Assembly (NCBI GenBank): GCA_964016885.1
Contig: OZ024741.1
Span: forward strand, 107,384,001 to 107,448,000
DNA from: Eledone cirrhosa
Lineage: Eukaryota
Length of the DNA stretch: 64,000 bases
Direction: 5' to 3'
A program made the position numbers and the translations under genes. Positions 1,564 to 60,670 of this stretch are shown in pieces (positions within the stretch are counted from its first letter, which is position 1; every line of letters starts with the position of its first letter). Below the pieces are notes generated by a model. It saw only the letters and a list, made by a program, of their open reading frames with translations, was not told the origin of the DNA and did no database searches.

Positions 1564-1671
1564 CAAAGAGGGTGTGGTAAGATACCAGGTAGACCATAAC
1601 GCACCAGAGTACTCAATACTTAGGGTAGTAGAGTGGGTAATAGGAAAAGAGTCAGGACTCCTGACTCCCTT

Positions 1672-3810: not shown

Positions 3811-4406
3811 ACTTCGTGTTAAGATCATAAACAGTAGTCGTTAGACATGCTCAACCAACCGTGACGCCTAAACCAATCAGCTTTAGTAATCCAGTGAAAC
3901 TACACACCGATTGGTCGAAATACAGTTTGCAAAATTTAGCATCCTGTTGCCGCTTTTCACTGTATATAAGGTACAAAATTTACCCATCTCATTACAATTG
4001 AAAATTGAAAACTTGACTGTCACCACAGAATATGAACCTGAAGATTGCGAAAGCATGAAAGTACTTGTTAAATTAACACTTAACATTTAATATTCTACCA
4101 TACTATTTCATTCTAATACCATTATACATTTTAAAGGATTGTAAATAAAACGAATAAATCAGACAAAGTTGGAATTCCTTTTATTAATATATATATAAAT
4201 ATAAGTATGTATACGTACATACATATATGTATACAGACGTATAGTAGTATGTATATATACACATACATGCACACATATATATATGTACGTATGGATTTAG
4301 CGAACATTTATTATAATGCTCGGTTTGTTTGTAAACAAACAGCCCGAATTAAGACGTACAGTGTTAAGCAACTATCGTTGCCCTTTTGTTCAACACTGAC
4401 AAAGGA

Positions 4407-4449
4407 ACGATGTACTAATTTCAAGCTTATTAGCTATCGTCAGCACCGT
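4407..4449 (-). ncRNA. Minimal type I hammerhead ribozyme motif (family B)
   Basis: Reverse complement: acggtg-CTGACGA-tagctaataagctt-GAAA-ttag-TA-catcgt. Helix I acggtg/catcgt has one G-U; helix II is agct/agct. Confidence 0.65.
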
Positions 4450-4812
4450 ATACCTTCCTGCCAGATGATTGAACGTCTGAAAGTATATACTTTCCTTATG
4501 CATATTAACGGTTGAGCAGCCTAATTTGCATATCGAGTGAGTTAATCGGCCGGGCGCACCAAAAACGATAAATGGAAAAAATGAAACGAAATTTCATTTC
4601 TCACTCTTAGTACGGCTGTTACTTAAATATAAGTATGTATACGTACATACATATATGTATACAGACGTACAGTAGTATGTATATATATACATACATGCAC
4701 ATATATATCTATATATGTACGTATGGATTTATCGAACATTTATTATAATGCTCGGTTTGTTTGTAAACAAACATCCCGAATTAAGCCGTACAGTCATCTG
4801 GCAGGAAGGTAT

Positions 4813-4855
4813 ACAGTGCTGACGATAGCTAATAAGCTTGAAACTAGTACATCGT
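4813..4855 (+). ncRNA. Minimal type I hammerhead ribozyme motif (family B)
   Basis: acagtg-CTGACGA-tagctaataagctt-GAAA-ctag-TA-catcgt. Palindromic ACTAGT helix III; one mismatch in helix I. Confidence 0.65.
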
Positions 4856-5115
4856 TCCTTTGTCAGTGTTGAACCAAAGGGCAACGATGGTTGCTTAACA
4901 CTGTACAGCTTAATTCGGGATGTTTGTTTACAAACAAACCGAGCATTATAATAAATGTTCGCTAAATCCATACGTACATATATATATGTGTGCATGTATG
5001 TATATATATATACATACTACTGTACGTCTGTATACATATATGTATGTACGTATACATACTTATATTTAAGTAACAGCCGTACTAAGAGTGAGAAATGAAA
5101 TTTCGTTTCATTTTT

Positions 5116-5181
<66 letters not shown>

Positions 5182-5198
5182 TTCCCTGGACAGTCAGC

Positions 5199-5330
5199 TT
5201 CCTGATGATTTCTCACGAATGAAACAGTTCTAGTCCTGTAGAATTTTCTATATTCTATATTAAATATTTATACTCTGCTTTGTATTGAGTACCTTACTGT
5301 GGTTACACCCGATTGAACTCTGGATAAACT
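5199..5330 (+). mobile_element. Family D element: hammerhead motif (5199-5243) plus structured tail
   Basis: ttc-CTGATGA-tttctcacgaat-GAAA-cag-ttctagtc-ctg-TA-gaa. Matches copies at 17417 and 60048. Confidence 0.7.
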
Positions 5331-5361
5331 TATATATATATATATTAAATTCTGGACTTAC

Positions 5362-5426
<65 letters not shown>

Positions 5427-5428
<2 letters not shown>

Positions 5429-5649
5429 ACAAAGAGGGTGTGGTAAGATACCAGGTGGACCATAACGCACCAGAGTACTCGATACTTAGGGTAGTAGAGT
5501 GGGTAATAGGAAAAGAGTCAGGGCCCCGACGGCTGAGCTTCGGCCATTTCGACAGCTAGATCCAAACTAAGCCAGCGGACTGGCGGTTTAGTTCGGAACT
5601 AGCTGTCGAAACGGCCGGAGCTCAGCCGTCGGGGCCCTGACTCTTTTCC

Positions 5650-5651
<2 letters not shown>
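5427..5651. mobile_element. Family A fold-back element with 145-nt hairpin (5507-5651)
   Basis: Arms taggaaaagagtcagggccccgacggctgagct / agctcagccgtcggggccctgactcttttccta. TA-rich tracts on both sides. Confidence 0.8.
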
Positions 5652-5710
<59 letters not shown>

Positions 5711-5714
<4 letters not shown>

Positions 5715-6184
5715 GAAAACGAAAAATCAGTGATGCATCTGAACTCAATTTATTGTGTGTTACAATAATATCGCCGGCGGACAGCTCGAGACGTGATCAT
5801 TGTGTGGATCTGTCTGATTCTGGACCCGCAGGTTCGACGGACACGTCTAATGATTTCGGATGACGTCGACAGCGGCCAATCCAAGGACGCGTGAAGAGGA
5901 TGAAGTTTTTGACGGTACTGGCCCAGAGGGTCAGATACCCCAGTGAGAGAATATGCTCCGAAATCATTAGACGTGTCCGTCGAACCTGCGGGTCCAGAAT
6001 AAGACAGATCCACACAATGATCACGTCTCGAGCTGTCCGCCGGAGAAACAATTGTAACACAAAATAAATTGAGTTCAGATGCATCACTGATTTTTCGTTT
6101 TCTATTCTATCATACTCTGCTCTGTAAGAGCATAGAGTGCTCAACTGGCATACCGCCTATGGAAGCATCTTAGCTACCATCAGA
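5711..6184. mobile_element. Family C fold-back element: 150-bp inverted arms (5711-5860 / 5957-6106) plus ~80-nt tail on the right arm only
   Basis: Arms are near-identical reverse complements. Further copies at 27207 and 30632. Degenerate hammerhead gtgt-ccgtcga...GAAA-caattg-TA-acac at 5973-6060. Confidence 0.8.
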
Positions 6185-6187
6185 CAT

Positions 6188-7069: not shown

Positions 7070-7788
7070 GTGAAGAATAAGTATGTAAAATGGGTTTTTG
7101 CAACAATTTATTCGGATATTTCCCATTACAAATTTTTCGACGGGTTTGACAACTATACAGTTTGTTGTTTCCATACCATCAATCTGGCCTCTTCAGATGG
7201 TCTTCCGAAACATTATTTTTATCCATCACTGGTTCTCTGAAGAATCCCGGGTGGAGAGATAGGGGAACTGGTAAAATTCAATCTCTCCTCTCTCAGTATC
7301 AGTTACCCTATAAGTTAGCAACCACGCCAATACCTATACACTGCATAATTTTCAGTAAACAAGATAATGGGAAGCTTTATAAGTTGGTAACCACGCTCAT
7401 AGCTATACAGAGCATAATTCTGATTTAAAAAGATGATGGGAAGATTTATGTGTTGGTATGATTATTATAGATTGCAGATTTTATAAATCTATGCTAAGAT
7501 CCAGGAGGTAACACAAACGTGCTTAAAAAAAAACTGTTTTACAACCCTTAAAAGTTTGGTTTATATATAAAGATCCCGTTAAGGGTGAAAGCAGCGATTC
7601 TTTGCTTAAACTTTAATCTGTTATTTTAATATATATATATATATGTGTGTGTGTGTTAACTGGTCTGTAAATACATAAAAATGCTCTACCAGGACAAATA
7701 GCAGTATAATAGATTACATAACAAGTGTCTGGCGTGGTCGCGTCAATTACATAATTGATACCATTGAAATGCGTTAACAGCACTGACA

Positions 7789-8083
7789 TAATAATTGTTT
7801 CTACTTTTGGCACAAAGCCAGCAATTACCCAGTACATTACTGGTACTTTATTTTATCGACCCCGTAAGGATGAAAGGCAAAATTATCCTCGGCGGGATTT
7901 GAACTCAGACCGTAAAGGGACGTAACTATGCTGGAAAGCATGGCGTCCGACTCTCTACTGATACTGCCACATAATAATTGTTTCTACTTTAGGCACAAGG
8001 CCAGCAATAATCCAGTTCATTACTGGTACTTTATTTTATCGACCCCGTAAGGATGAAAGGCAAAGTCAACCTCGGCGGGATTT
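7789..8083 (-). mobile_element. Two adjacent tRNA-SINE copies
   Basis: Match to the SINE consensus; B-box reverse complement ggatttgaactc at ~7895. Confidence 0.85.
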
Positions 8084-8723
8084 GTAATAATGAAATGATA
8101 TAAGATTCCAGAATACTACCTTATTTTTCATTCTTATGCAAAAACTCCGCCGCCCACAATCCTGCGTAATTCCGTCGAGTGCTAAACTCTGCGTACACTA
8201 GTATTTGTTGATCAATACATACAACTGAAAAACAATTACCTGTTGACGAAGACGAACGTACCAAATACACCCCTCCCTCCGCTACACACATATAAATATG
8301 TTAGTGCGTGAGTTTTTATATCTGTTTGTGTTTATATATATATATATCTTTGGTGTAGTCCGCTCTGTTGCAAACATTTGGATCAGGTGTTCAGTTTGAG
8401 GTTACCTTCCTCCTGACTAAACAACAATGCTTGAGCAATTGTTAACACATACACTAATACACTAATACAAACACTCACGCATACATTCTCTCACGCACAG
8501 ACGCAAACATTATTAAAAACAAACTCATATACAAACACACAACCTGCCATACATACTGTCACACACATTGACGCACACACAATTGAAAGCACACACATAC
8601 AGAGATACAAACATATATGCACATACATTAGTTCACACACAGACACACAATTGCAAACAACACTAATTACACAAGCTCTTACACAAACATTCGCGCGCGC
8701 GCGCGCACACACACACACACACA

Positions 8724-11722: not shown

Positions 11723-12044
11723 TTTGAGTATGCAGATTGGAGCACTCGACGAAGTGCGCAGGTTGGTTTGGTTACTCCGGAGTAATGTAAAATAAAATAA
11801 AATAAATAAGTCAAATGTTTAAAATTTGGCTTCGTTTATTACTGCTATATATATTTCGGTGACAGCCATCTTTGGTTGTGACCTCTTCAGGCAGTCCGAA
11901 TTAGTGTGGTAGAGACGAGTACACATGTTGTTGAGGTATTTAACTAATTCGGACTGCCTGAAGAGGTCACAACCAAAGATGGCTGTCACCGAAATATATA
12001 TAGCAGTAATAAACGAAGCCAAATTTTAAACATTTGACTTATTT
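11720..12044. mobile_element. Family F fold-back element: 102-bp perfect inverted arms (11804-11905 / 11943-12044), tail on left arm (minus sense)
   Basis: Arms are exact reverse complements with a 37-nt spacer. TA-rich tracts lie nearby on both sides. Confidence 0.8.
11953..12007 (+). ncRNA. Type I hammerhead ribozyme motif with canonical core (family F); mirror copy on minus at 11841-11895
   Basis: actgc-CTGAAGA-ggtcacaacca(aaga)tggctgtcacc-GAAA-tatata-TA-gcagt. Perfect 5-bp helix I, G10.1-C11.1, palindromic helix III. Confidence 0.8.
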
Positions 12045-46948: not shown

Positions 46949-47064
46949 ACAAAGTTTGTTTTATAAATATTGACATATCCAGGAATGAGACCTTAACGGT
47001 TCAAGTGTTACCTATATATATATATATGTGGAGAGAGACAGGATATATCAATGTACACCATTGT

Positions 47065-48075
47065 GGATTGGCAGCATCGGTAAAGGGTCGGACACCATGC
47101 TTTGACGCATAGAGTTACGGCCCTTGCCATTCTGAGTTCAAATCCCGCCGAGGTTAACTTTGCCTTTCATCCTTACGGGGTCGATAAAATAAAGTACCAG
47201 TACCACTGGGATAATTGCTGGCCTTGTGCCAGAAGTAGAAACAATTATTTATACAATGGTAGGGCGGTGGATTGGCAGTATCGGTAGAGGGTCGGACGCC
47301 ATGGTTTCCAGCATAGTTACGTCCCTTTACGGACTGAGTTCAAATCCCGCCGAGGTTAACTTTGCCTTTCATCCTTGCAGGGTCGATGAAATAAAGTACC
47401 AGTACTGTACTAAGTAATTGCTGGTCTTGTGCCAAAAGTAGAAAGAATTATTTATACAATGGTAGGGCGGTGGATTGGCAGTATCGGTAGAGGGTCGGAC
47501 GCCATGGTTTCCAGCATAGTTACGTCCCTTTACGGACTGAGTTCAAATCCCGCCGAGGTTAACTTTGCCTTTCATCCTTGCAGGGTCGATGAAATAAAGT
47601 ACCAGTACTGTACTAAGTAATTGCTGGTCTTGTGCCAAAAGTAGAAAGAATTATTTATACAATGGTAGGGCGGTGGATTGGCAGTATCGGTAGAGGGTCG
47701 GACGCCATGCTTTGCAGCATAGAGTTACAGCCCTTTATAATCTGAGTTCAAATCCCACCGAGTTTAACTTTGCCTTTCATCCTTACGGGATCGATAAAAT
47801 AAAGTACCAGTCACGCACTGGGGTCGATTTAATCGACTTTCCCCTCTCCCAAAATTGATGACCTTGTGCCTTTATAAGAAACTATTATTTATACTATGGT
47901 GGATTGGTAGTATCGTTAGAGGGTCGGACGCCATGCTTTCCAGCATAGAGTTATCTTCCTTTACGGACTGAGTTCAAATCCCGCTGCCTTTCATCCTTAC
48001 AGGGTAGATAAAATAAAGTACCAGTAATGTACTGGGTAATTGCTGCCGTTGTGCCAAAAGTAGAAACATTTATTT
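47065..48075 (+). mobile_element. Head-to-tail array of five tRNA-SINE copies
   Basis: atacaatggtagggcggtggattggcag at 47251, 47454 and 47657 (203-bp period). Confidence 0.9.
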
Positions 48076-58881: not shown

Positions 58882-59744
<863 letters not shown>

Positions 59745-60050: not shown

Positions 60051-60232
60051 TGAGATTCTACAGGACTAGAACTGTTTCATTCTTTAGAAGTCATCAGGAA
60101 TCCTGATGATTTCTAAAGAATGCAACAGTTCTAGTCCTGTAGAATCTCATCTATATTAAAACTTTTATACTCTGCTATGTATTGAGTACCTTACTTACTG
60201 TGGTTACCTCCGATTCAACCCTGAATAACTTT
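60048..60232. mobile_element. Family D palindrome (60048-60152) plus tail; intact hammerhead motif on minus at 60054-60102
   Basis: Near-perfect palindrome centred at 60100. Reverse complement gattc-CTGATGA-cttctaaagaat-GAAA-cag..ctg-TA-gaatc. The plus arm has GCAA instead of GAAA. Confidence 0.75.
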
Positions 60233-60254: not shown

Positions 60255-60366
60255 GTTGAAAAAAATGAAAACGAAATTTCATTTCTCACTCTTAGTATGG
60301 CACTTACTTAAATGTAAGTATGTATGTATACGTACATACATATATGTATACAGACGTACAGTAGCA

Positions 60367-60434
<68 letters not shown>

Positions 60435-60670
60435 AGTACACATACATATATGCACGCATCAGTTTAGCGGACGCTTATTATAACGCCGCTTTGTTCGTTT
60501 GTCAACAAACTGAACAGCCTGAATTTATGCCATACGGTGTTAAGGCAACCACGTCACCTTTTTGTTCAACACTGACACAGGAACGATGTACTAGTTTCAA
60601 GCTTGTTAGCTATCATCAGCACCGTTTACCCATCTGCCAGATAGTTGAACGTTCGAAAGTATATATATAT
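60255..60670 (-). mobile_element. Family B single unit with hammerhead motif 60583-60625
   Basis: Reverse complement acggtg-CTGATGA-tagctaacaagctt-GAAA-ctag-TA-catcgt. Confidence 0.75.

Follow-up and report, generated by a model that had tools for sequence, protein, structure and literature searches.

The window, by which we mean the whole 64-kb stretch of a 3.0-Gb animal genome that was analysed, carries arms and stubs of retroelement families A, C, D and F, in which a small bulged hairpin recurs (Table 1). In A, C and D the motif occurs twice between the hammerhead ribozyme and the ATG, as hairpin 1 and hairpin 2, and most copies stop at a UA located some 6 nt 5' of one of the two: ahead of hairpin 1 at the short end, ahead of hairpin 2 at the long end, called the 'tail'. 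A sequence-only reading of this DNA had drawn hairpins of families A, C and D between 5272 and 6142, and they are present as written; its further copies at 12338, 22208, 59653 and 60169 are likewise found, together with additional ones at 1607, 13128, 58918 and 27379-27407. For family F the motif is there, but the partial form then given was too small, the full bulged hairpin running from 11783 to 11740 on the minus strand.

Table 1. Hairpins, hammerheads and element arms in the window
Feature	Position	Strand	Remarks
Family A hairpin 1, additional copy	1607..1634	minus	
GCTC/GAGC-form hairpin of another family, shared with locus L122	2317..2360	plus	
Family D stub	5185..5330	plus	minimal hammerhead (core 5202-5224), AT-rich spacer, hairpin 1, tail to long end in (TA)n
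Family D hairpin 1 plus 3' flank	5272..5294	plus	ACTC/GAGT lower stem, TT bulge, 3-bp upper stem
Family A arm with long end	5430..5580	minus	5'-truncated within hammerhead
Family A hairpin 1 plus ACTC flank	5473..5500	minus	ACTC/GAGT, TC bulge, TACT/AGTA upper stem
Inverted family A arm, same insertion as 5430..5580	5590..5649	plus	short end, ~8 nt before hairpin 1
Inverted family C arm	5711..5860	minus	short end, 6-8 nt ahead of hairpin 1
Family C arm with long end at (CA)n/(TA)n	5942..6187	plus	no canonical hammerhead core resolved
Family C hairpin 1 plus GCTC flank	6114..6142	plus	ACTC/GAGT, TA bulge, 4-6-bp upper stem
Family F full hairpin	11740..11783	minus	ACTC/GAGT, TC bulge, 6-bp upper stem, long loop; fold and covariance-model match
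Family F hammerhead	11854-11890	minus	ORF of family F not linked
Family A hairpin 1, additional copy	12338..12365	plus	
Family A hairpin 1, decayed	13128..13147	minus	
Hairpin of A-related subfamily (diverged A relative)	22208..22237	plus	other tail
Family C hairpin 1, additional copy	27379..27407	plus	G.T at lower-stem base
Family A hairpin 1 with small duplication	58918..58952	minus	
Family A hairpin 1, additional copy	59653..59680	minus	
Family D inverted insertion	60055..60228		short-end arm (minus) and long-end arm (plus); hairpin 1 at 60169-60191

Several other repeats share the window. Another hammerhead family forms inverted pairs at 4197-5119, 41266-42026 and 60257-60659 (cores at 4819 and 41787), and the 3' end of a Neptune-like family, resembling the tails at L120 and L144, lies at about 3900-4190 with a hammerhead core at 4038. 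A repeat of about 200 nt that looks SINE-like is frequent, occurring at 7786-8084 and about 20 other places, and also as a 203-nt tandem array at 47063-47811. Between 5099 and 6230 various families of Penelope-like elements (PLEs) are stacked within shared TA arrays, and since new TA runs flank each insertion, the elements seem to feed their own targets.

On sequence grounds, families A, C and D are Hydra-clade PLEs that are related in protein and whose leaders cannot be aligned. The first look returned 2956 candidates for A, 3982 for C and 2156 for D, so these are abundant families. Walking upstream of their tails led to pieces of ORFs encoding reverse transcriptase (RT) and GIY-YIG endonuclease (EN); in family D these pieces lie 3-6 kb from the tail and probably belong to the family, and its link to an N-terminus downstream is direct, the leader running on to a Hydra ATG at L178 and L172. 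LTR-retrotransposon-like RT/integrase frames were also seen upstream of D tails, at L230 and L231. The N-termini of the A, C and D ORFs are 39-50% identical over 32-44 aa, and the leaders share just one 14-nt stretch, between A and D. The families had been called otherwise unrelated, which is not correct, as all three lead into related ORFs of one clade; full-length alignability, which would have weakened the case for a motif, was not seen, the leaders having diverged apart from the motif itself. Membership in one Hydra clade implies that the motif was inherited and did not arise by convergence.

Both the upstream ORF pieces and the N-termini align to H0, a young family with many intact 713-aa frames, each a single ORF with RT and C-terminal GIY-YIG. 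The many intact ORFs at L229 and L266-L269 are 96-98% identical, their hammerhead core is altered to CAGAAGA, and H0 is a good substrate for biochemistry. Pfam assigned no family to the H0 protein. A search for RNA records carrying the H0 leader gave none, which does not bear on its expression. The Hydra clade is marked by an RWK-type motif, DKT, CxCX5C, the lack of CCHH, and CxxC and CxH around conserved E and N (Craig et al. 2021, PMC8557442, here and below cited from its accessible parts). RWR is shared by H0, A, C and J, and DKT replaces DKG in H0, L121 and C; the CxC-5-C linker is found in H0, L121, L228 and L280, and both the A copy L223 and the D-linked L226 have it in decayed form; H0 has CxxC and CxH and no CCHH. 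A tree of metagenome and host RTs, built without named Hydra reference proteins and without L159, places the host RTs of these families in one clade (100/100) amid Hydra-like RTs from metagenomes, at a great distance from the Neptune-like RTs of the host. The insertion target of the hairpin families is (TA)n. Hammerheads were found in D, F, J and A, with the U3-A8 core TTGATAA in longer A copies such as L009; none was resolved in C. Families F and G could not be linked to any ORF. Taken together, the elements resemble the C-terminal EN+ PLEs of the Hydra clade (PMC8557442) in their RT plus C-terminal GIY-YIG ORF with RWR, DKT and CxCX5C, and further in the hammerhead within the pLTR of D, F, J and A, the (TA)n targets, the 5' inversions and a tail on one end only, the tail here measuring about 55-90 nt against the published 30-40. 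The RTs of PLEs are the sister group of telomerase RT (PMC8557442).

The motif can be written as RCUC-[stem-loop]-UH-GAGY(-RCY), a bulged hairpin. A loose descriptor of it gave 89 matches in 464 kb, made up of the window and 40 stretches picked blind, as compared to 15-28 matches in ten block shuffles, and these matches reveal many further families with stems of both the ACTC/GAGT and the GCTC/GAGC type. Independent elements were collected from metagenomes: homologues of H0 (14 of 120 aligned) led to 78 loci in 56 clusters, chosen by RT similarity alone and here called foreign. A covariance model built from 40 foreign hairpins alone and then run on the window placed 14 of its top 15 matches in tails of families A, C, D and F, among them two opposite-strand matches on C tails; the remaining one is weak and lies at 4812-4835 in another hammerhead family. 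The same model also recovers the junction hairpins. As to the C tail, its opposite strand scores as a hairpin (6133-6172 and 27398-27437, minus), GAGTGCTC reading there as GAGCACTC with a second stem after it, which may be chance or a relic.

Covariation was assessed on 77 foreign sites in 44 clusters, located by sequence-only anchors with no pairing rule and with mis-anchored sites retained. At the upper-stem positions U1 to U4, Watson-Crick pairs are formed in 69, 47, 40 and 34 of the 77 sites, against means of 35.5, 23.8, 19.0 and 20.4 in permutations, which ignore relatedness. The covariation of the upper stem that had been seen in the window is thereby borne out, and in the register of a 2-nt bulge only; registers of 0, 1 and 3 nt are at background. 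The first bulge base is T, fixed by the right anchor, and the second is T, C or A in 50, 17 and 10 sites. In a hand-picked set of 40 sites, pairing holds in 97% of cells and double changes are seen in 36, a number that 0 of 500 shuffles reached. Sense-strand G.U-type pairs outnumber C.A/A.C at U1 (2 vs 0) and U3 (9 vs 0), with no excess at U2 and U4. The lower stem is near-invariant in the foreign set and covaries only between foreign and host elements (G-C vs A-U); the 3' flank ACT, which has no partner on the 5' side, is retained in 67 of 77 foreign sites. We therefore read GCUC/GAGC-ACU as the general form and ACUC/GAGU-RCYY as the compensatory variant of this host. Taken singly, the hairpins have no folding advantage over shuffles (z +0.2 to -1.1), so that the evidence for the structure is covariation and not stability. 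A second tail hairpin with an ATCTT loop, noted earlier for A and C, is not conserved: ATCTT occurs in 28 of 66 A copies and TCCTT in 24, and it is seen in neither D nor F.

Tandem junctions were used to see the RNA past the tail. All five full hammerhead-to-ATG host junctions hold twin elements (A L032, C L291, D L178, H0 L268, J L122). In A, H0 and J a second bulged hairpin is followed by the ATG, whereas D (L178 and L172) has, after the long end, an unbulged GCAC/GTGC stem as its second element. Hairpin 2 of family C was predicted from the rule and found at four loci among 100 listed of 184 pattern matches, the other listed ones being microsatellite flanks; one of the four, L291, was followed into the Hydra ATG. 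Across 19 foreign twin leaders the median spacing is 53 nt from the hammerhead GAAA to hairpin 1, 63 nt from hairpin to hairpin and 27 nt (range 15-51) from hairpin 2 to the ORF start; the host hammerheads lie about 40-70 nt upstream of hairpin 1. With the unbulged stem of D and an H0 hairpin 1 spanning about 55 nt, the twin-hairpin rule is a loose one.

The hairpin is found well beyond this host. It is present in 24 of 26 clusters of foreign intact hammerhead-to-ATG leaders, at least two hairpins being found in 19, as compared to a background of 3 in 273 ORF windows; the two hairpin-less leaders, L377 and L395, look mis-parsed and are counted as misses. The opposite strand is invalid as a control, since the stem is self-complementary (12 of 26 positive). 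The RTs across motif-bearing elements are only about 40-55% identical. In PLEs of other animals, where the sequence-only reading had pointed, the six Hydra consensi published as File S7 were read by eye, and four hold the hairpin (Amil-2, Ajap-1 twice, Ajap-2 and, in a mismatched form, Crog-1), from coral, sea cucumber and sea louse; by eye, it is not clear in Obim-1 and Amil-1. The words TTGAGCACT, TAGAGCACT and TCGAGCACT occur six times in the 584-kb supplement of PMC8557442, four times within these hairpins, in a count from which line breaks may hide matches. Neptune-like families recovered by the first GIY-YIG search of the host served as control: none of 29 tails from about five families carries the hairpin, nor does the one full leader, L143. 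The CX2-5CxxC linker and DKG are found in the control ORFs L141, L143 and L144 and not in the hairpin families. An alignment of host RTs only gave no matches in metagenome, viral or prokaryote contigs, and RT alignment A3 none in viral contigs.

Concerning the ends of copies, host counts were taken from loci not picked by a query of the same family, with an end window of -10..+1 relative to a hairpin and with TA sites as the null. The window holds 40 of 58 ends in A (p 2e-19), 29 of 47 in D (p 2e-5) and 31 of 36 in H0 (p 3e-13); family C alone is not significant (5 of 8, p 0.19). Host ends cluster 5-9 nt ahead of hairpin 1 or hairpin 2, and in H0 the 11 TA sites between both windows take 3 of 36 ends. 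Many of the ends outside the windows (18 of 58 in A, 18 of 47 in D) fall at -21 to -24 or at +60, where subfamilies differ from the reference. Foreign junctions end at -4..+1 in 20 of 26 cases, shared TA counted; four of the six misses look like alignment artefacts and two, L344 and L371, look real. TAH is found at -10..-3 of 57 of 58 foreign hairpins with a peak at -6 (control windows 26, 24 and 16), and the TA peak at -6 precedes both hairpins. As ends fall just 5' of hairpins, the hairpin that marks an end lies outside the copy, and the one visible in a tail is hairpin 1, kept when the end lies before hairpin 2. Long copies of A, C and D stop 36-46 nt past GAGTRCYY at (TA)n or (CA)n, many of them with an inverted 5' arm. 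The position about 40 nt from the 3' end, to which the sequence-only reading had given weight, is merely the spacing to the second start site, just before a hairpin 2 that is absent from the inserted tail.

Inverted insertions use one site per arm. Among 55 head-to-head insertions at non-seed loci, 47 could be classed, in wide windows of -30..+2 and -18..+2, and 8 stayed unclassified: 41 join a long to a short end, 5 two short ends and 1 two long ends. If arms chose freely, 23 of the 47 would be long plus short (p 7e-8). Both the A pair at 5430-5649 and, by direct reading, the C pair at 5711-6187 join a long to a short end. If long perfect palindromes were lost or mis-assembled, the number of long-plus-long pairs could fall, but that of short-plus-short pairs would not. 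Either arm can be the longer one (L267, L269, L029, L185); at L267 the short-end arm measures 3 kb and holds the full ORF, the long-end arm about 0.5 kb.

We propose, with a probability of about two in three, that the hairpin, present twice in the Hydra-clade leader, is a binding site that places the RT at the UA about 6 nt upstream. The RT-endonuclease protein would bind RCUC/UH/GAGY-ACU on an RNA running past the hammerhead site, and the nicked (TA)n target would pair over 2-5 nt with the UA(H) ahead of the hairpin. The cDNA would be primed away from the hairpin, and the hairpin in use would never be copied; a start at hairpin 1 would leave a short end and a start at hairpin 2 a tailed end carrying hairpin 1. 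Each target strand would use one hairpin for priming, and head-to-head joining of the resulting two truncated cDNAs would follow. This scheme draws on genomic end positions, next to the structure, twin arrangement, clade distribution, ends and arm pairing described above. As first suggested from the window, the best reading is an RNA element that acts in cis, is common to the families and is tied to RT priming, freed of the distance from the 3' end and of the unrelatedness of the families. More tentatively, the two hairpins could each seat one subunit of a dimeric Penelope protein on one RNA, which we hold to be possible rather than probable. Each subunit would then prime from one strand of the self-complementary (TA)n at its own hairpin, a single RNA being copied twice simultaneously; if true, this would account together for the one-end tail, the inverted 5' copies and the microsatellite targeting.

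Cutting beside the hairpin remains the main rival. The RNA might be cleaved just 5' of it, or the GIY-YIG endonuclease might resolve a cDNA or DNA intermediate there, with the RT starting from, or the product being trimmed to, that end. Identical end positions are predicted, and there is precedent in that the tail has been ascribed to EN-mediated resolution (PMC8557442) and that the D. virilis tail is needed for EN recognition (Frangieh et al. 2024, PMC11167929, likewise cited from its accessible parts). We nevertheless consider cutting unlikely, because the ends sit on TA(H), matching the target, at 57 of 58 foreign hairpins, as pairing-based priming predicts, because Poseidon_Ac shows internal initiation without cleavage (PMC11167929), and because G.U-type pairs exceed C.A/A.C at U1 and U3, though not at U2 or U4. 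A role of the hairpins in translation or RNA capture, with ends that merely fall on nearby TA microhomology, would suit the short distance from hairpin 2 to the ORF start (median 27 nt in 19 foreign leaders) and the AT-rich leaders. It is improbable, as other TA sites are avoided, including TATAT runs inside H0 hairpin 1, the TA peak stands at -6 before both hairpins, and long-plus-short pairing requires two distinct sites.

Long-plus-short pairs (41 of 47) would be explained directly if the inverted short arm were a snap-back copy of the long cDNA stopping at hairpin 1, with hairpin 2 the sole true start; however, such a copy cannot produce L267, where the short-end arm is the longer, short arms reach further at L029 and L185 too, and full H0 copies end at the short site, so that we regard it as very improbable. 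That GAGYRCTC acts as a palindrome, as a DNA site for a dimeric endonuclease or for RNA dimerisation, is hardly credible even though GAGTACTC of family A is a perfect palindrome and the unpaired flank ACT is kept (67 of 77), for the commonest form GAGCAC sets C opposite A in a self-dimer, the symmetry is broken in D and several families, and a DNA site does not need the covarying upper stem.

Bulged stem-loops or UTR structures bound by the element's own RT are known from hepadnavirus epsilon and the R2 3' UTR, and in L1 twin priming two target-primed starts yield an inversion. Here the sequences of the two arms overlap, and the hairpin, located 3' of the start, stays uncopied; no kinship in sequence is claimed. 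The closest biochemical parallel to the proposed placing of the RT is Poseidon_Ac, whose RT has two internal start sites that delimit the tail and requires the RNA 3' of them, both target strands being cut and extended and a dimer being predicted (PMC11167929). In these respects the proposed mechanism fits Poseidon_Ac. That element, however, belongs to another clade and starts in an AC-rich stem loop inside the ORF that has no homology with the cut DNA (PMC11167929), whereas here the sites are in the 5' UTR, on a TA resembling the target and in each case followed by a covarying hairpin. The accessible text of PMC11167929 describes no repeated conserved motif for Poseidon_Ac, and its supplement text is also without matches. 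The minimal hammerhead ribozymes of PLEs (Cervera and de la Pena 2014, PMC4209133, in its accessible parts) recur here, including the U3-A8 core in family A and the Neptune families; the hairpin is separate from them, lying 3' of the cleavage site and having no hammerhead core.

The available text of PMC8557442 does not use 'stem-loop', nor its supplement 'hairpin', and the structure is not mentioned there. Rfam gave no matches in six junction loci, and none of 150 listed of 321 matches in the window reached the gathering score, those listed being miRNA-like repeat matches, in agreement with the sequence-only reading, which had recognised no named motif. No published description of the hairpin was found in the literature searched, with most subscription papers and Repbase outside its coverage. 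We conclude that the motif is genuine and conserved, belongs to a PLE clade already known, and has no description within the literature searched. At stake is how PLE RTs pick an internal start and give rise to both the tail and the 5' inversions. Since the motif is about 25-40 nt long and follows a sharp positional rule, and the host has young ORFs that are intact, this is directly testable in the existing in vitro assay, and annotators learn to recognise where Hydra elements truly end.

The host's Neptune-like families (L091-L120, L141-L160) also have at least two end sites in (TA)n and mostly a U3-A8 hammerhead core. Several of them carry a CTCGTGT/CCCGTGT-like word near their ends, which perhaps is a clade-specific counterpart of the hairpin.
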